A DNA stretch of 64,000 bases from an uncultured Candidatus Rokubacteria bacterium (GTDB lineage: Bacteria > Methylomirabilota > Methylomirabilia > Rokubacteriales > DASRDR01), in contig CAWDVE010000004.1 of the NCBI GenBank assembly GCA_963805625.1, positions 64,001-128,000 of the forward strand, given 5' to 3'. Below the pieces are notes generated by a model. That model did no database searches. It was not told where the DNA came from and saw nothing but the letters and a program-made list of their open reading frames with translations. This document shows, in pieces, positions 1 through 36,584 of this stretch. Every line of letters begins with the position of its first letter. Within the stretch, counting starts at the first letter, position 1. A program made the position numbers and the translations under genes.

Positions 1-243
1 TTCCCGTCGCCGTTCTTCCGGAACATGCCGACCGGGATTGTCGTGGAGTCCATGGAGGATGAAAAGGCGGTCGAGAAGCGCGTCACCCCCTCGATGAAGG
101 AAGCGTTCAAGGAGGAGCTCCTGCACTTCGCCGAGTGCGTGCGCACTGGCGCGCGCCCGATCACGACCCCCGAGGAGGCGCGCGGCGACGTGGCGCTGCT
201 CCACAAGATCTTCCACGGGATCAAGCGCCCGTTGATCGGATGA
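1..243 (+). CDS. C-terminal fragment of a Gfo/Idh/MocA-family oxidoreductase (5' partial)
   Basis: Frame 1 is open from the window start. It ends AFKEELLHFAECVRTGARPITTPEEARGD, a typical Gfo/Idh/MocA C-terminus. Confidence 0.75.
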   Translation, partial: FPSPFFRNMPTGIVVESMEDEKAVEKRVTPSMKEAFKEELLHFAECVRTGARPITTPEEARGDVALLHKIFHGIKRPLIG

Positions 244-358
244 GCCACGGGTCGCCGCAGGCCGCCACAGGCCGAAGGCCGTCCGATCAAGCCGTCCGAT
301 CGGCCGTCACATCAATGCGTTCGATCAGACTCAAGGTGGAGCGAGGGTAGCCCAGTGA
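240..358 (+). repeat. Dispersed RRPS mini-ORF element, copy 1 (one base missing relative to the copy at 31812-31916)
   Basis: Reads ATGAGCC...GCCACAGGCCGAAGGCCGTCCGATC...AGGGTAGCCCAGTGAG and is homologous to 31812-31916(-) and 35098-35205(+). Its ATG overlaps the upstream TGA and its TGA overlaps the downstream GTG. Confidence 0.8.
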
Positions 359-9589: not shown

Positions 9590-9678
9590 CGAAACTTCTG
9601 CTCAACCCCGTCGACGCATGGAGCAGGGTCGCCGGGGTGTGCCGCCGGCTTTCCCGGAGAGGGTCGCCCGGTGAGTCG

Positions 9679-15239: not shown

Positions 15240-15788
15240 TCAGGGCCAGAGCGCAGCAGGGACCAGCGCGAGATCGGGGAAGGGCGGGAGCGACGCGGGG
15301 CCGGTGCCGGAGACCCGCGCGATGAGCGCGCATCGACCCTCGGCGAGGCCGTAGACCTCGACGGTCCGAGCGTCGGCGTCGACGATCCAGTAGTAGGGCA
15401 CGCTGTATCGCTGATAGAGATCCGTCTTGATGCTGCGGTCGATCCGGGTCGTCGAGGGCGACAGGATCTCGACGACCAGCGTTGGTGGGCCTTCGATGCC
15501 CCGTTCGCTGATGAGGTGCGCCCGAGTCGGATCCAGGTAGACGAGATCGGGCTGGACGATCGTGGTGTCGGCGAGGATCACGTCGATCGGCGCGTAGAGC
15601 ACCTCGCCGAAGGCGTGAGCGGCGAGGTGTGATCTGAGGATCGAGTTGAGGGCGCCGCTGACCCGCTGGTGACGAGTACCCGGAGTGGGTGTCACGGACA
15701 GCGCTCCGTCGTGCAGCTCGTACCGCCGCCCGTCGGCCGGGAGAGCCTCGTAATCACGGTAAGTGAGGACCGCCCGCTCGCCGCTCAT
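15240..15788 (-). CDS. Uma2 family (PD-(D/E)xK) endonuclease
   Basis: RYELHDG, VQPDL, PTLVVEILSPST..D...K, YYWIVD. TACAAT lies 6 nt upstream of ATG 15788 (leaderless). Confidence 0.9.
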   Translation of the reverse strand: MSGERAVLTYRDYEALPADGRRYELHDGALSVTPTPGTRHQRVSGALNSILRSHLAAHAFGEVLYAPIDVILADTTIVQPDLVYLDPTRAHLISERGIEGPPTLVVEILSPSTTRIDRSIKTDLYQRYSVPYYWIVDADARTVEVYGLAEGRCALIARVSGTGPASLPPFPDLALVPAALWP

Positions 15789-15821
15789 GCCCGGATTGTA
15801 GGGGCCCACCCCGGCGAGCGG

Positions 15822-16184
15822 TCAACGCGAGCGGCTGTCTGCCGGCGGCCGGCCCGACCGCTGGTGGACACCGAGGGTCTCCTGGTGCGCGAGGAGGTGC
15901 CATCGCGCCCGCTCGGCGTCGGCTGGGTCCTCCCAGCGCACCTGAGGGAGGCGGGCTCGAGCGCTTCTCAGGTGGGGGAGATCGACCCGCCCCTGGGCGT
16001 CGTGGTGCGGCAGGTGGCGCGACGTCGTGCCGTCCGGCGCCACGTGGACGACGGCGAAGGCCTCGTCGGGGAGCGCGGCGACGTAGGTCCGTGTCCATGA
16101 TGCGGCCGAGGCTCCGGCCGCGAATGCGAGCGTGCAGACTGCGACGGCCACGAGGCAGCGAGCGATCCGTCGATGTGACGCCAT
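15822..16184 (-). CDS. Secreted hypothetical protein (LPDEAFA...RHLPHH...HLRSARAR, DUF6582-like)
   Basis: Signal peptide ending ASA-A and GGAGG RBS. Family assignment is from memory. Confidence 0.65.
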   Translation of the reverse strand: MASHRRIARCLVAVAVCTLAFAAGASAASWTRTYVAALPDEAFAVVHVAPDGTTSRHLPHHDAQGRVDLPHLRSARARLPQVRWEDPADAERARWHLLAHQETLGVHQRSGRPPADSRSR

Positions 16185-16226
16185 CGTCCGAGTTTCCTCC
16201 GCTCAGCGCGAGCTGACCGAGCGTGG

Positions 16227-16242
16227 AGCAAGCACGAGGCCA
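16227..16242 (-). promoter_or_regulatory. Sigma54-type -24/-12 promoter
   Basis: TGGCCT-CGTGC-TTGCT upstream of ATG 16184. Confidence 0.55.
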
Positions 16243-16420
16243 GGTGTCGGCGTGCCCCGAAGTGCCCACGGCGGAACGACACGGGCGCCAGAGGGGGTGT
16301 CTCGGGAAGCGTACGACCGTATCTCGGTCGGCTTGAGTCAGGGGGCCAGCCGGGCGCGGGGCTGCGGTGGCGTCTGGGCCCCGCGTCCGGCTGGCGACTC
16401 TTGACGCCCGAGGAAGGGCG

Positions 16421-16912
16421 CTACTTCACCTCGCGGAGGCGCCCGGTGCGGACGTCGTAGACGAAGCCGCGCACTTCTCCCCGGTGCGGGACGAAGGGAT
16501 TCGCCCGGATCCGGGCGATCGACTGGCGCACGTCCTCGTCGAGGTCGGAGAACGGCTCGAGGGCGAACGGGGGCCGGATCCCGGTCTGCGCCAGGATGTC
16601 CCGCTTGAGCTCCTCGTCGGTGAACGTGAGCATCCCGCAGTCCGTGTGGTGGATCAGGATGATCTCGCGTGTGCCGAGGAGGCGCTGCGAGATCACGAGC
16701 GAGCGGATCGCGTCCTCGGTGATCGCACCCCCCGCGTTCCGGATCACGTGGGCGTCCCCCTCGTCGAGCCCGAGGAGATCATGGAGGTCGAGTCGCGCGT
16801 CCATGCACGCGACGACGGCCACTCCCTTGGCCGGGGGGAGGGGCAGGGAGCCCTTGGTGAAGGACCCGGCATAGTGCTGGTTGTTCCGGAGAAGCTCGTC
16901 CGTGACACTCAT
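16421..16912 (-). CDS. Beta-class carbonic anhydrase (Rv1284-like small clade)
   Basis: ACMDARL, RNAGG and HHTDCG zinc ligands. Confidence 0.93.
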   Translation of the reverse strand: MSVTDELLRNNQHYAGSFTKGSLPLPPAKGVAVVACMDARLDLHDLLGLDEGDAHVIRNAGGAITEDAIRSLVISQRLLGTREIILIHHTDCGMLTFTDEELKRDILAQTGIRPPFALEPFSDLDEDVRQSIARIRANPFVPHRGEVRGFVYDVRTGRLREVK

Positions 16913-16963
16913 CGTGGGCCTCCTCTCCGGGCTCCTTCAGGGAGCCGCGGGGCCTGGAAACGC

Positions 16964-17008
16964 AAAAAGCCGAGGGCGGGGCTCGCGGAGCCCGCGCCGC
17001 TCGGCTTT
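16964..17008 (-). terminator. Intrinsic terminator between the zinc-ribbon gene and the carbonic anhydrase
   Basis: Long GC stem (AAAGCCGAG...CTCGGCTTT) ending in a TTTTT run on the minus strand. Confidence 0.7.
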
Positions 17009-17050
17009 CGTCTTCTCGTCCGACTCTCGCCGTGCTGACCTGGTTCGGGG

Positions 17051-17257
17051 TCACTCCCGGTAGTTGAGGGGCACCTCCACCCAGCTCTTGCAGCGAGGAC
17101 ACTTGGCCGCGGCGCGCCCAGTCTTGGCGCTCACGCGCAGGATCGCGTTCTTCACGACGAGCCCGTCGGGCTCGGGGACGACGATCTTCGTCCGGCACGT
17201 AGGGCAGCGACGGCCCTCGACGCCGGCGAGTGCTCTTACCAGGTGGCCGTCGGCCAT
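17051..17257 (-). CDS. Small zinc-ribbon protein (CPTC...CPRC), Com-like
   Basis: 68 aa with two CxxC knuckles and its own leaderless promoter. Confidence 0.75.
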   Translation of the reverse strand: MADGHLVRALAGVEGRRCPTCRTKIVVPEPDGLVVKNAILRVSAKTGRAAAKCPRCKSWVEVPLNYRE

Positions 17258-17263
17258 GTCGGA

Positions 17264-21964: not shown

Positions 21965-23278
21965 ATGGTTTTCCCGAGCCGGATCATCAGCCTCGTGCTC
22001 ACCGTGAGCCTGGTGGCCTCGGCCGGTCAGGCGCAATCCCCGCCGCCGAGCGCGCCCCCTCAGGGGCCGGCCGCCCTCACGCCGGATCAACTCGAACAGC
22101 TGCTGGCCCCGATCGCGCTCCACCCGGATCCCCTGGTGGGCCAGATCCTGATGGCCGCCACCTATCCGCTCGAGGTGGTCCAGGCGACCCGCTGGCTCCA
22201 GGACCCCAATAACGCGGCCCTGACCGGCTCCGCGCTGGCGGCGGCCCTCGACCTGCGGCCGTGGGATCCCAGCGTCAAGGCCCTCGTGCCCTTTCCCCAG
22301 ATCCTGCGCATGATGGATAGCTCGCTCGAGTGGACGGAAGCCGTCGGCGACGCATTCCTGTCCGATCAGGCGGCCGTCATGGACGCGATCCAGCGGCTGC
22401 GCCAGCGGGCACAGTCGGCCGGGACCCTGGTCACCACCACGCAGCAGATGGTGGTGACGGCGGATCAGGCGATCGGCATCATCCCGGCCGATCCTCAGGT
22501 CGTCTACGTGCCGATGTATGACCCGGGTGCGGTGTACGGGACGTGGGTGTACGCGCCGAGTCCGTTCTTCGGATATCCCGTCGTCGCCCCGCTCGGGGGT
22601 ATGGGGGGGCTCAGCTTCGGCGTCGGCATCGTCGTCGTGTCGTACTTGTGGGGCTGGCATAACTGGGATTGGCATCATCATCGTCTCCATGTCGACGACG
22701 ACCGATTTCACCACATCAGCGGTCACCATCCCCCACCGGGGGGCATCTGGCAGCACGACCCGGTCCATCGCCACGGGGTCCCGTATCGGGATCCGGGAAC
22801 GCGCGCGCGCTTCGTGGGGGGCCCGCCCGTTGACGTGCGTGGCTACGGCCCTGGCCCTCCGGTGAGGCCGGGCACTCGTCCTGGTGGCACGCCGCCTCGG
22901 GCTGCCCCTCCACCGAGGAGCCCCGCCCCGCCCCGCGTGATGCCCGCCCCCGGCGCCGCCGGCCCTGGCCCCGCGGTGAAACCGGGCACTCATCCGTTGG
23001 CCAGAGTGCCGCCTCGGGCTCCTGCCCCGCCGCCGAGCCCCGTCCCGCGCCCCGTGACTCCTGCCGTCGGCGGGGCGCTTCGCCCGCTCGCCCCCGCCTT
23101 CGAGTCCTTCGGGCGAGGCGTCGACGTACGCACACACACCGAGCGCGGCCAGTCGAGCCGACAGTTCATCGCCCCGCCCTCGCTGCGGGCCCCAGCCACG
23201 CGTCCATTAAGCGGGGCGCGCCCCGGGGGGGCGCCCTCCGGGGGCACCAAGTCCGGGAGCGGCCAACCTCGCCGCTGA
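21965..23278 (+). CDS. DUF3300 domain-containing secreted protein
   Basis: LEQLLAPIALHPDPL..QILMAATYPLEV, WDPSVKAL, VYVP.YDP, WQHDP.HR.GVPY, Pro-rich tail. Confidence 0.9.
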   Translation: MVFPSRIISLVLTVSLVASAGQAQSPPPSAPPQGPAALTPDQLEQLLAPIALHPDPLVGQILMAATYPLEVVQATRWLQDPNNAALTGSALAAALDLRPWDPSVKALVPFPQILRMMDSSLEWTEAVGDAFLSDQAAVMDAIQRLRQRAQSAGTLVTTTQQMVVTADQAIGIIPADPQVVYVPMYDPGAVYGTWVYAPSPFFGYPVVAPLGGMGGLSFGVGIVVVSYLWGWHNWDWHHHRLHVDDDRFHHISGHHPPPGGIWQHDPVHRHGVPYRDPGTRARFVGGPPVDVRGYGPGPPVRPGTRPGGTPPRAAPPPRSPAPPRVMPAPGAAGPGPAVKPGTHPLARVPPRAPAPPPSPVPRPVTPAVGGALRPLAPAFESFGRGVDVRTHTERGQSSRQFIAPPSLRAPATRPLSGARPGGAPSGGTKSGSGQPRR

Positions 23279-30043: not shown

Positions 30044-31771
30044 TCAGTGGCTCGTGGGCGCGTACGGCGTCCAGTCCTGACCGGGGCCGCCGCGCAGGAA
30101 GTCGAAGTCGACGCCCTCTGGCGCCTGCAGCACGTGGTCGAGGTAGAGCTTTCCGTACCCGCGTGTGAAGGCGGGCGCGGGCGGGGTCCACCTGGCCTGC
30201 CGCCGCGCGAGCTCCTCGTCGGACACGTGGAGCACGAGCCGCCGCCCCGGGACGTCGAGCTCGATCTGGTCGCCGTCCCGGACGAGCGCCAGGGGACCGC
30301 CGACCGCGGATTCTGGCGCGACGTGGAGGACGCAGGTCCCGTAGGACGTGCCGCTCATCCGGGCGTCGGACACCCGCACCATGTCCTTCACGCCCTGGCG
30401 GAGAAGCTTCTCCGGGATGGGGAGCTGCCCCCACTCCGGCATCCCGGGTCCGCCTCGCGGCCCGCCGAGCTTCTGGACCAGCACGCACGTCTCGTCGACA
30501 TCGAGCGCCGGATCGTTCACGCGCGCCATGAGGTCGTGCTTGGACTCGAAGACGACCGCCCGGCCCCGGTGGCGGAGGAGATGGGGCGAGGCCGCGGTCT
30601 GCTTGAGCACGGCGCCGTCGGGACACAGATTCCCCTGGAGGATCACCGTGCCCCCTTCCTTCCCGAGCGGGCGGTCCAGGGGGACGATCACGTCGGGGTT
30701 CCGCACGCGGGCGCCCTGGACGTTCTCGGCGAGGCTCCGGCCCGTTACCGTCGGCGCCCCGCCGTGGAGGAGTGGGAGGAGCTGGTGAAGGACGGCGGGC
30801 AGCCCGCCCGCGTAGAAGAAGTCCTCCATCAGGTACTTCCCGGAGGGCCGGACGTTCGCGATGAAGGGCGTCTCCCGCGACAGGCGGTCGAAGAGCGACA
30901 GCGGCAGCGGCACGCCGACGCGACCCGCGATTGCGGGCAGGTGGACGATCGCGTTCGTGCTCCCGCCGATCGCCATGTCCACGCGGATCGCGTTCTCGAA
31001 GGCCTCGCGCGTGAGGATCCGGGTCGGGCGGAGGTCCTCCGCCACCATCTCGACGATCCGCTTCCCCGTCGCCTCGGCGAGCGTGAGGCGCCGTGAGTCG
31101 GGCGCGGGGATCGCCGCGTTGCCCGGGAGCGTCATGCCGAGGGACTCGGCCATCGAGGCCATCGTCGACGCGGTGCCCATGACCATGCAGTGTCCGGCCG
31201 AACGCGAGAAGCAGCTCTCCAGCTCACACCAGGACTCCTCGTCGAGCCGGCCCGCGCGGAACTCGTCCCAGTAGCGCCAGAGATCCGTCCCCGAGCCGAC
31301 CTCCTCGGTGCCGAACATGCCGCGGAGCATCGGGCCGCCGGTGACCATGATGGCCGGGAGATCCGCGCTCGCCGCGCCCATCAGCATGGCGGGTGTCGTC
31401 TTGTCGCAGCCTGACAGGAGCACGACGCCGTCGAAGGGCAGGCTCCGGATGCACTCCTCCACGTCCATGGACATCAGGTTCCGGAAGAGCATCGTCGTCG
31501 GCTTCATGAGGGGCTCGGAGAGCGAGATCACCGGGAACTCGAGCGGGAACCCCCCGGCGCGCCAGACGCCCCGCTTGACGTGCTCCGCGACGGTCCGGAG
31601 GTGCGCGTTGCAGTTCGTCGCCTCGCTCCAGGAGTTCGCGATCCCGATCACCGGCCGGCCCTGGAAGGCATCCTCGGAGAATCCCTCCGCCTTGATCCAG
31701 GCGCGATGGAGGAAGCCGTTGAGGTCGGTCCCACCGAACCAGTGCTGGCTGCGGAGCCTGGGGTTCGTCAT
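30044..31771 (-). CDS. IlvD/Edd-family dehydratase (L-arabonate/sugar-acid dehydratase-like)
   Basis: CNAHL, MLFRNL, CDKTTP, C.VMGTASTM, GGSTN and SDARMSGT. Confidence 0.92.
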   Translation of the reverse strand: MTNPRLRSQHWFGGTDLNGFLHRAWIKAEGFSEDAFQGRPVIGIANSWSEATNCNAHLRTVAEHVKRGVWRAGGFPLEFPVISLSEPLMKPTTMLFRNLMSMDVEECIRSLPFDGVVLLSGCDKTTPAMLMGAASADLPAIMVTGGPMLRGMFGTEEVGSGTDLWRYWDEFRAGRLDEESWCELESCFSRSAGHCMVMGTASTMASMAESLGMTLPGNAAIPAPDSRRLTLAEATGKRIVEMVAEDLRPTRILTREAFENAIRVDMAIGGSTNAIVHLPAIAGRVGVPLPLSLFDRLSRETPFIANVRPSGKYLMEDFFYAGGLPAVLHQLLPLLHGGAPTVTGRSLAENVQGARVRNPDVIVPLDRPLGKEGGTVILQGNLCPDGAVLKQTAASPHLLRHRGRAVVFESKHDLMARVNDPALDVDETCVLVQKLGGPRGGPGMPEWGQLPIPEKLLRQGVKDMVRVSDARMSGTSYGTCVLHVAPESAVGGPLALVRDGDQIELDVPGRRLVLHVSDEELARRQARWTPPAPAFTRGYGKLYLDHVLQAPEGVDFDFLRGGPGQDWTPYAPTSH

Positions 31772-31811
31772 GGGCGGGCGGTGCCTTCTCGACGGGAAGC
31801 GGCCCGGGAGC

Positions 31812-31916
31812 TCACTGGGCTACCCTGGCTGCGCAGGAGTTGATCGGACGGCTTCGATTGGACGGTCTTCGATCTGTGGCGGACGGTCTTCGATTTGTGG
31901 CGGCCTGTGGGCTCAT
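31812..31916 (-). repeat. Dispersed RRPS mini-ORF element, copy 2 (34 aa)
   Basis: Encodes MSPQAATNRRPSATDRRPSNRSRPINSCAARVAQ with 21-nt tandem units. Its ATG overlaps the upstream gene's TGA. Confidence 0.8.
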
Positions 31917-32257
31917 ACCTTGTCTTCCGTGCCGCGTGACCGGTACTCGGCGACTCTCTCCTGGATGGTCCTGGCAATGCTCTCCGCGTGGTCCATCGAG
32001 ACAAGAATGCCTAGCTGAATGCGACGCGTGAACCGGCGCTCGGGTTCGCGGCGGAGCTCCGTCCCCACCCGTCCCTCGGGACTGATGGCATGCATGACGC
32101 GGGTGGGAAGAGTGGGCGCCTCGACGAAGAAGTCGAGACGCAGGTCACCCCGTGGCGTTGGATCACCCCAAACACCATTGGCCGCGACCAGGCGATATCC
32201 GGCATCGTACTCGAAATGGAATTCGATCTGCCCTCCTTCGTACTGACGTTCGGTCAT
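31913..32257 (-). CDS. Hypothetical protein (DUF3467-like)
   Basis: GGAGGAG RBS and YRLVAANGVWG..TPRGDL.LDFF.E pattern. Somewhat more A/T-ending codons than neighbours. Confidence 0.7.
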   Translation of the reverse strand: MTERQYEGGQIEFHFEYDAGYRLVAANGVWGDPTPRGDLRLDFFVEAPTLPTRVMHAISPEGRVGTELRREPERRFTRRIQLGILVSMDHAESIARTIQERVAEYRSRGTEDKV

Positions 32258-34648: not shown

Positions 34649-35042
34649 GTGTCCGCCGCGAGCCTGACGCTCGTCCGGGAGGTCTACGACGCGTTCGCGC
34701 GCCGGGACCTCTCCGCCGTGTTGGCGCGGCTCCACCCGGACGTCGAGATCCGTCAGACGGGGCTCGTGCCCTGGGGCGGGCACTACCGCGGCCAGGAGGG
34801 CGCCCGGGAGTTCTTCGGGCGAGTGCTCGGCGCGATCGACTCCGCCGTGACCGTCGAGCGCTTCAATCGACGCGGGTGATCACGTGGCGGCGGTGGGGCG
34901 GACGCGCGGTCGCACCCGCGCGAGCGGCGTCGCGTTCGACCTGGCTGTCGTCCACGTGTGGACCGTGCGGGACGCGCGACTCGCGCGGCTCGAGGTGTCC
35001 ATCGACACGCCGGCCATGCAGGAGGCGCTGGCCTCCGGCTGA
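34649..35042 (+). pseudogene. NTF2/SnoaL-like protein with a +1 frameshift near 34865 (possibly a sequencing error)
   Basis: VREVYDAFARRDL...PWGG.Y.G. Deleting one A in TTCAATC gives FIDAGDHVAAVGRTRG...VHVWTVRD...IDT, ending at TGA 35042. Confidence 0.8.
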
Positions 35043-35097
35043 CCGGCGCGAAGCCGTTCTGCCGGCCTGCTGCCGGATCGGGGTAGAGTGCAGGGCG

Positions 35098-35205
35098 ATG
35101 AGCCAACAGTCCGACACAGGGCGAAGACCGTCTGCCACAGGGCGAAGACCGTCTGATCGAAATCGGCCGATCAACTCCCATGCCAGTCTAAGGGTAGCCT
35201 GGTGA
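35098..35205 (+). repeat. Dispersed RRPS mini-ORF element, copy 3 (35 aa)
   Basis: Encodes MSQQSDTGRRPSATGRRPSDRNRPINSHASLRVAW. TAGAGT -10 box 8 nt upstream; its TGA overlaps the sthA GTG. Confidence 0.8.
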
Positions 35206-36584
35206 GCCCAGAGAGCGACGTCTACGAGTTCGATCTGGTGGCGATCGGGAGCGGCCCCGCGGGCCAGCGCGCCGCCGTCCAGGCGGCGAAGCTCGGGAAG
35301 CGGGTCGCCCTCATCGAGAAGAACCGGTGCGTCGGCGGCGTCTGCGTCGAGACCGGGACGATCCCGAGCAAGACGTTCCGCGAGGCGGTGTGGGCCATGA
35401 GCAGCGCGCCCGCCGCCGGCGCCCGTCCGACCGCCGAGCAGCTCCTCGGGCGTGTCAGCGACGTCGTCCGGCGGGAGATCGACGTGCTGGACAGCCAGCT
35501 CCGGCGGAACGACATCGCGGTGATCCGGGGCGAGGCCGAGTTCCAGGACCCCCACACCCTGCTGATCCGGTCGGAGACCGGCTCCCGCGCGGTCCGCGCC
35601 GCGACGATCGTCGTCGCCGTGGGCACGCGGGCCGTCACCCCGCCCGGGGCGGTGCTCGACGGCGAGGTCGCGATCACCAGCGACGACATCATCCGCCTGA
35701 AGCGCCTGCCGCGGGCGATGGCGGTGGTGGGCGGCGGCGTCGTCGGGATGGAGTACGCGTCGATCTTCGCCATGCTCGGGATCGAGGTCACGGTGGTGGA
35801 GCGGCGGGACCGGGTACTCGACTTCGTCGACCGCGAGATCGTGGACGAGCTCATCCACCAGATGCGAAAGCGCGACGTCACCTTCCGCTTCGGCGAGGCC
35901 GTGGAGCGGTTCGAGGTGTCGGAGGGGCCGCCCCGGCGGGGTGTGCTGTTCCTCGAGTCAGGGAAGCGGATCGTCTCCGATCTGGTGCTCTTCTCCGCGG
36001 GCCGTACGGGTGCAACCGATCGGCTGAACCTCGCCGCGGCCGGCCTTGCTGCCGACGGGCGGGGCAGGCTCGGCGTCGACGCCGACTTCCGGACCTCGGT
36101 TCCCCACGTCTACGCCGCCGGGGACGTGATCGGTTACCCGAACCTGGCCGCGACGTCGAGCGAGCAGGGACGGCTGGCCGCCTGCCACGCCTTCGGCGTC
36201 GCCGCCGGGCCGATGGCGTCCCACTTTCCCGTGGGGATCTACGCCATCCCGGAGATCTCCATGGTCGGGGCCACCGAGCAGGAGCTGACCGCGGCCAAGG
36301 TTCCGTACGAGATCGGGATCGCGCGGTACCGCGAGATCGCGCGGGGCCAGATCCTGGGCGACGACAGCGGGCTCTTCAAGATGCTCTTCCATCGAGACGA
36401 CCGGCGGCTTCTCGGCGCCCACGCGATCGGCACCCAGGCGACCGAGCTGATCCACATCGGCCAGGCAGTCCTGGGGCTCGGCGGCGGGCTCGACTACTTC
36501 ATGCGGACCGTTTTCAACTATCCGACGCTGGCCGAGTGCTACAAGGTGGCCGCCCTCGACGCGGCCAACAAGCTCGCGACCTGA
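35202..36584 (+). CDS. sthA: Soluble (Si-specific) NAD(P)+ transhydrogenase
   Basis: IGSGPAG, GGVCVETGTIPSK (single Cys), YAAGDVIG.P.LA.TS.EQGR and FNYPTLAECYKVAA. Confidence 0.93.
   Translation: MSPESDVYEFDLVAIGSGPAGQRAAVQAAKLGKRVALIEKNRCVGGVCVETGTIPSKTFREAVWAMSSAPAAGARPTAEQLLGRVSDVVRREIDVLDSQLRRNDIAVIRGEAEFQDPHTLLIRSETGSRAVRAATIVVAVGTRAVTPPGAVLDGEVAITSDDIIRLKRLPRAMAVVGGGVVGMEYASIFAMLGIEVTVVERRDRVLDFVDREIVDELIHQMRKRDVTFRFGEAVERFEVSEGPPRRGVLFLESGKRIVSDLVLFSAGRTGATDRLNLAAAGLAADGRGRLGVDADFRTSVPHVYAAGDVIGYPNLAATSSEQGRLAACHAFGVAAGPMASHFPVGIYAIPEISMVGATEQELTAAKVPYEIGIARYREIARGQILGDDSGLFKMLFHRDDRRLLGAHAIGTQATELIHIGQAVLGLGGGLDYFMRTVFNYPTLAECYKVAALDAANKLAT

Follow-up and report, generated by a model that had tools for sequence, protein, structure and literature searches.

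A dispersed mini-ORF repeat at RTGA translation starts in a Rokubacteria-like genus

The repeat at 31812-31916 of the window (the whole 64,000-nucleotide stretch of DNA that was analysed) is one copy of a dispersed family. The copies lie in a fixed orientation with RTGA at both ends, occur at junctions that also have empty alleles, and show a strong excess of in-phase lengths with no conservation of the peptide. Based on sequence comparison, we consider it likely that the family is an enzyme-less repeat, mostly 54 to 150 nt long, located at RTGA starts that mostly overlap a stop codon. It is probably mobile, and is probably tolerated by way of mini-ORFs on which ribosomes would be handed on to the next gene.

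Copies in the window and extent of the family

The focal copy lies between a hypothetical gene and a dehydratase gene, and the features of this junction are as follows.

31913..32257 (-): upstream hypothetical gene, 114 aa
31913..31916 (-): 5' ATGA, in which the upstream gene stops and the mini-ORF starts
31812..31916 (-): focal repeat copy, 105 nt; 34-codon mini-ORF open from ATGA to GTGA
31901..31910 (-): 10-nt unit; its number differs from one family member to another, which moves the core into another frame
31880..31900 (-): 21-nt unit 1, ATNRRPS; the GGCC-GAA-GGCC mini-hairpin of the family is damaged in this copy
31859..31879 (-): 21-nt unit 2, ATDRRPS
31816..31826 (-): conserved right end, which has a run of purines 7-11 nt ahead of the new start codon
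31812..31815 (-): 3' GTGA, in which the mini-ORF stops and the new start codon lies
31768..31815 (-): second mini-ORF, 15 aa, outside the repeat, terminating on the dehydratase ATG
30044..31771 (-): downstream IlvD/Edd-family dehydratase gene, 575 aa

The focal copy is translated as MSPQAATNRRPSATDRRPSNRSRPINSCAARVAQ up to its stop. The initial annotation had described an unbroken chain of overlaps here, and each link was confirmed: the TGA of the 114-aa ORF overlaps the ATG of the mini-ORF, whose TGA overlaps the GTG of the 15-aa ORF, whose TGA in turn overlaps the dehydratase ATG. The TAG within the right end closes the +2-shifted frame 4 nt ahead of the new start. The downstream gene had been named ilvD; its product is an IlvD/Edd-family dehydratase (NF004784, over cut-off), but the ilvD equivalog TIGR00110 scored below its cut-off. 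The closest relative of this dehydratase (L031, 96% identical) is labelled Ca. Methylomirabilota, and the host is Methylomirabilota/Rokubacteria-like. The 114-aa gene gave a weak DUF3467 lead and no Pfam or NCBIfam match; its GC content is lower, and it follows an M20 peptidase gene in 5 of the 13 genomes having that peptidase end.

Among the orthologs of this junction (13 loci given), the dehydratase start could be reached by relay in 11 of 12 scored, under a permissive rule with no null and with one pass (G004) that runs into a truncated gene. The routes differ, and the distances from stop to gene range from 11 to 187 nt. The route by the second mini-ORF, for example, differs in G013 and G008, both of which still arrive at the dehydratase ATG. 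Behind the M20 peptidase gene, L264 (G003), L270 (G004), and L265 (G006) have a truncated dehydratase gene or none, and in G006 the gap is filled by a Y1-type repeat, described below.

Two further copies are present in the window.

240..358 (+): third copy, 119 nt and frameshifted, occupying the overlap of a gene that ends at 243 with an inositol-monophosphatase-family gene (355-1152)
35084..35089 (+): TAGAGT, conserved, a possible -10 box, 8 nt before the ATG of the second copy
35098..35205 (+): second copy, 108 nt, open
35202-36584 (+): soluble transhydrogenase gene (NF003585), whose GTG closes the second copy

The three related copies that had been reported were recovered by both searches used. 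The end motif gave 3 exact matches, and 4 at two or fewer mismatches, against a shuffle mean of 0.10, and a profile search of the window with filters off returned the three known loci alone below E 0.05. Lengths of 105, 108, and 120 nt, all multiples of three, had been claimed; the first two are correct, while the third copy is 119 nt long and out of phase, stopping at a TAG 4 nt short of the downstream GTG. Since the G013 ortholog of this copy (131 nt) keeps the identical phase and stop, the frameshift is inherited and its 'repair' to 120 nt unwarranted. Relay was reachable at this junction in 13 of 14 orthologs, again by a permissive rule with no null. The second copy has the translation given in the initial annotation, and the bridging of operon junctions does not extend to it: no upstream stop overlaps its start, the preceding gene ending at 35042, 55 nt before the element ATG. 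In empty orthologs of this site, the transhydrogenase gene's own ATG is located here, at TAGAGT, where a near-leaderless start is probable. Elsewhere in the window, a right-end motif match with one mismatch at 9660-9675 (+), in a spacer that has no core, is probably chance or a remnant. ORFs at 21965-23278 (+) and 15240-17260 score low by the codon model, suggesting foreign or decayed DNA.

A search of the genome and its relatives, as had been proposed, bore out a dispersed family. Iterated profile and motif scans found 59 family loci in the 7.27-Mb genome G000, where the 20-nt core occurs 46 times genome-wide at two or fewer mismatches, against 0 in one block-shuffled genome. Of 14 same-genus genomes, 13 carry family matches, against none of 16 from other genera, and a screen of 150 genomes of the phylum confined the family to the genus. 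A sequence model of the element was present in 9 of 9 same-genus genomes and in one sister-genus genome; among 145 genomes of the order it gave two further matches, in another family and within coding sequence, that look like chance. Plasmids, phages, and viral contigs gave no real match, and one Actinomycetota genome gave none either, a result that is uninformative regarding the mycobacterial repeats discussed below.

From left to right, the element consists of RTGA, then one to five units of 10 nt, the core (which contains a 4-bp hairpin), units of 14 nt, and a fixed right end that closes with GTGAG(C). Its usual lengths are 84 and 60 nt, and the RRPS heptad comes from 21-nt duplications, the units of which number from one to several. 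The ends are direct, not inverted, and the element has no terminal inverted repeats. Head-to-tail copies sharing an RTGA were seen at 8 of 110 sites.

Insertion sites, empty alleles, and mobility

Element ends were defined by sequence motifs, blind to frame. Ends were definable at 31 of the 59 loci in G000 and in 104 of 149 elements of relatives, and the loci with no definable end (28 and 45, respectively) were dropped before counting. The 135 copies collapsed to 110 distinct sites, in which kin are not independent. RTGA was found at the element start in 103 and at the element end in 108 of the 110 sites. A coding stop precedes 76 sites, 90 open a coding gene, and 61 do both. Random orientation and missing overlaps had been named beforehand as signs against coupling; besides the 61 sites flanked by overlaps on both sides, the flanking genes are both on the element strand at 47 of 59 loci and both opposite at 3. 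The genes flanking different copies are unrelated. At three loci (G000:C10:1923594, G000:C13:580879, and L293), the stop of the upstream gene is gone, and the gene runs on into the repeat and gains a repeat-derived tail.

Empty alleles were found at many of these junctions. From the relatives, 87 of 104 copies mapped to a junction in G000, of which 19 hold the core and 68, including a few decayed copies, do not. As the initial annotation had proposed to check, the core-less orthologous sites were compared with the filled ones: 32 of the 68 projected to a 4-nt overlap (gap -4), and 23 of 25 distinct empty sites of this kind read RTGA. The site at 240-358 is bare in 7 of 13 relatives, including G010, whose downstream gene is 95% identical, and a soil contig about 90% alike omits 240-356 (4 letters are ambiguous). 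On the tree, filled alleles of this site are interspersed with empty ones, and the site is patchy among close kin; therefore, gains or precise losses have taken place more than once.

The base after TGA in the empty allele equals that of the 5' junction, and not of the 3' junction, in 6 of 6 informative sites. Because of this match, the element would appear, from this small sample, to bring its own start codon and to join 3' of a resident RTGAN. A mobile cassette preserving translational coupling, one of the two readings first offered, is thus supported by the empty 4-nt overlaps, the fixed orientation, and the kept phase, while the accompanying proposal of a TGAG(C) target duplication is doubtful, at least as a duplication of the plain classical kind. 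No target consensus beyond RTGA(GC) was found, the sequence upstream of the RTGA showing one weak position and nothing else, and G follows TGA in 13 of 24 empty sites against a background of 38% (p 0.09). Of the 110 copies, 90 end on a gene start, while of the RTGAG sites outside called genes only 809 of 5758 (14%) are starts, an intergenic class that is inflated, as the gene caller spans 82% of the genome. With no longer consensus to account for it, this excess could point to an active mini-element that senses translation starts beyond the DNA sequence, with precise entry and exit by a single-strand, HUH-like cut-out-and-paste and an end that preserves coupling in all three frames. We regard this reading as rather unlikely.

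No transposase, recombinase, or reverse transcriptase locus bearing the element ends was found: among 74 Y1, Y2, IS110, and reverse transcriptase loci (about 3 kb each, a subset of the IS110 and reverse transcriptase matches), one weak partial match (E 0.02) was seen. Enzyme genes are present in the genomes of the genus (Y1 in 9 of 15, Y2 in 6, IS110 in 12, and reverse transcriptase in 5), and the 10 same-genus Y1 loci are flanked by a different repeat with no match to model R1. IS200/IS605-derived elements and the REP/RAYT system insert 3' of a short fixed target with no true duplication, are lost precisely, and carry a small hairpin. The 6 of 6 junction polarity is consistent with these systems. 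Unlike them, the element has no associated Y1 or Y2 that was found, the Y1 of the genus has other repeats, and the hairpins of the element are weak and variably spaced from the left end. By the IS608-style guide/target pairing rule, CAAC near the right end fits while the left end does not, which is speculative. If the element is mobile, our best guess, which is tentative and the weakest step of the account, would be a single-strand cut-out-and-paste driven by a trans-acting enzyme, since the junction polarity, precise loss, head-to-tail copies, and small hairpin all fit such a route.

A Y1 (RAYT-like) transposase gene is located at one shared locus genus-wide (L315, at G000:C4:135122-138289, L303-L308, L311, L313, and L316), and is broken in G000, G001, and perhaps G008. 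The Y1-flanking repeat, GGGGTCAG...CTGACCCC, gave about 75 loose motif matches in G000, counted with no null.

Reading frame and peptide

The transit of ribosomes is proposed to be as follows. The element would enter just 3' of a resident RTGAN and supply a new start, the GTGAG(C) that it carries, by which the resident start codon would turn into that of the mini-ORF. After finishing the upstream gene, a ribosome would restart at -4, translate about 27 dispensable codons, terminate on the last TGA of the element, and restart at -4 once more, now on the downstream gene. Copies with a non-triplet change of units would be kept mostly after a second change had restored the phase, and the other two phases would tend toward near-coupling, either as an N-terminal extension or as a stop 4 nt before the start. 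In other organisms, coupling was seen for 13 of 14 overlapping stop/start pairs that were tested (Huber et al. 2019, PMC6728339); the element would use this same termination-reinitiation mechanism twice, while that study concerns ordinary gene pairs. Coupling through small ORFs with no conserved sequence is established in mycobacteria (Shell et al. 2015, PMC4633059). As described there, those small ORFs also keep the RTGA link to the next gene and not the peptide, and they fit the possible leaderless start at 35098, but they are unique sequences, unlike a dispersed repeat with empty sites.

The element length is a multiple of three at 73 of 110 sites (p 2e-12). The other 37 sites are out of phase. 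Ends taken from gene calls alone gave 18 of 25 in phase, and metagenome contigs (13 loci) gave 8 of 9 with both ends. The lengths of the 5' and 3' segments compensate each other in 71 of 102 copies against a permuted mean of 41.5. Of the in-phase single copies (n=71), 62 have no stop before the terminal TGA and another 4 terminate one codon ahead of it. Among the other phases, 9 of 13 copies at +1 read into the downstream gene and 12 of 18 copies at +2 stop 4 nt ahead of the downstream start. Interior in-frame stops number 4 against 11 and 9 in the other frames, which is borderline (p 0.054).

These lengths might also arise in a passive, untranslated spacer that prefers RTGA on insertion, carries its own weak ribosome-binding site, and takes its phase from a founder of 60 or 84 nt and slippage by 21 or 24 nt. 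Exactly 84 nt are found in 24 of 102 single copies, the right end carries a conserved purine run ahead of the new start, and out-of-phase copies persist, as in G000 and G013 at 240-358. Moreover, when lengths of 60, 84, 63, 81, 105, 108, 126, and 147 nt were dropped, the excess was not significant (21 of 52, p 0.18), although this cut takes out in-phase classes alone. Because the common 60- and 84-nt forms are already multiples of three, part of the in-phase excess is inherited from them. However, 29 of the 46 copies with a non-canonical 5' offset are still in phase (p 4e-5), some with wholly different peptides, and the 10- and 14-nt units are not triplets. Unrelated spacers are biased likewise, though more weakly: repeat-free junction spacers are in phase in 55 of 116 cases (element versus non-element p 0.03), and therefore selection for relay would be genome-wide and not specific to the element. 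Thus, we judge the passive spacer improbable. In G000, an open in-phase mini-ORF spans the interval between two RTGA overlaps at 41 junctions that have no recognised repeat, and at least 4 of these look like decayed family copies (C10:780216, C9:59408, C10:1316331, and C13:509284).

The alternative first offered, a family of Arg/Pro-rich regulatory or ribosome-pausing peptides in which the sequence matters, did not hold up. An MSPQA start and an RPIN...RVAQ end are common to many copies, second codon positions are the least variable in the RRPS frame (24 against 45 and 70 of 483), and one minor frame gave a mild sign in its favour (0.48 against 0.30, n 42). Against this, RRPS is present in only 25 of 64 open ORFs, with two RRP units in 7, and the core is read in three frames, as RRP in 35, as an HRPKA-like peptide in 13, and as AEGR in 17 of the 64. 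Purifying selection on the peptide, which had been proposed as a check by dN/dS, was not seen, as the synonymous share in the RRPS frame was 0.55 against 0.52 for other-frame variants read in that frame. The unrelated flanking genes and the patchiness among close kin also speak against a peptide family, which we consider extremely unlikely, and a leader or arrest peptide was rejected on the same grounds of peptide and flanking genes. Selection seems to act on the frame, not on the peptide, as far as sequence variation can tell.

Structure and relation to known repeats

Mycobacterial MIRUs occur in tens of copies per genome, and Supply and co-workers are said to have noted in 1997 that they lack dyad symmetry. 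According to a 2025 review (PMC12548453), MIRUs seem to be mobile, use start codons as insertion sites, and bring along an ORF that is coupled to the host gene with -4 spacing. Variation in the copy number of a 77-bp MIRU at senX3-regX3 is described in PMC9392950, and MIRUs go unmentioned in PMC9094748. Judged by this published account, the initial statement that no such element had been described does not stand, since MIRUs have the same design. The present family is likewise a short dispersed repeat in tens of copies, with start-codon or stop-start insertion backed by empty sites, an in-phase ORF apparently placed for coupling, and tandem copies. It differs in belonging to another phylum, where it is found in one genus with a core-only relative in a sister genus, and in having 10-, 14-, and 21-nt modules and a 4-bp hairpin. 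The element behaves like a MIRU in each feature examined, as compared by description, and is a real and well-delimited variant of a published design. It is not filed as a MIRU because the host is not mycobacterial and the likeness rests on description, not sequence. In the openly available papers searched, no description of the family or of MIRU-like repeats in Rokubacteria was found, and the sequence family is apparently undescribed.

Within the same literature, MIRU-type mobility is in print for mycobacteria only, and no enzyme is described for it. A second, apparently independent family would make start-codon riding with ribosome relay a repeatable survival strategy of selfish DNA in high-GC, overlap-rich genomes, and if the reading by start-site sensing were true, the mechanism of MIRU mobility would become testable in a second phylum. 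The pairs of filled and empty alleles are natural tests of termination-reinitiation. In practice, spurious Arg/Pro mini-proteins and shifted starts will mislead annotation, and copy-number variation could serve strain typing.

The structural side was also evaluated. The 24 copies of 84 nt showed no folding excess as RNA or DNA on either strand (mean z -0.1 to -0.35), consensus folding of the copies, the covariation check that had been called for, gave no covariation support, and an Rfam scan of the window gave 0 matches. An Rfam RNA family was thus rejected, as were a REP/REPIN with RAYT (Y1 loci with other repeats, folding z near 0, fixed orientation) and a MITE with terminal inverted repeats (direct ends, empty allele equal to the 5' junction only). 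A hairpin repeat of the REP/REPIN or MITE type, having a structural role in DNA or RNA and an incidental frame, could still explain the 4-bp core hairpin, in which a stem pair changes from C-G to T-A in 13 of 260 cores, but those 13 cores are related and the change is also synonymous in the RRPS frame. In the sister-genus genome G149, a composite hairpin element of another kind contains the same core, with at least 128 occurrences. Given the lack of folding excess and covariation support in the copies examined, the absence of an Rfam match and of terminal inverted repeats, and the other repeat flanking the Y1 transposase of the genus, we find such a hairpin repeat very unlikely, and the relay reading is preferred.

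The composite element of G149 (L327, L337, and L344-L371) is 150-400 nt long and has subterminal inverted repeats, with the family core as an optional module. It mostly lies directly against the stop of a gene on the opposite strand, at CTAG. Because the same core is carried there as a module of a larger hairpin element, this finding suggests that the relay form arose from an older repeat. One core-bearing copy in G149 (L371) lies at what we take to be the rpmJ-rpsM junction.
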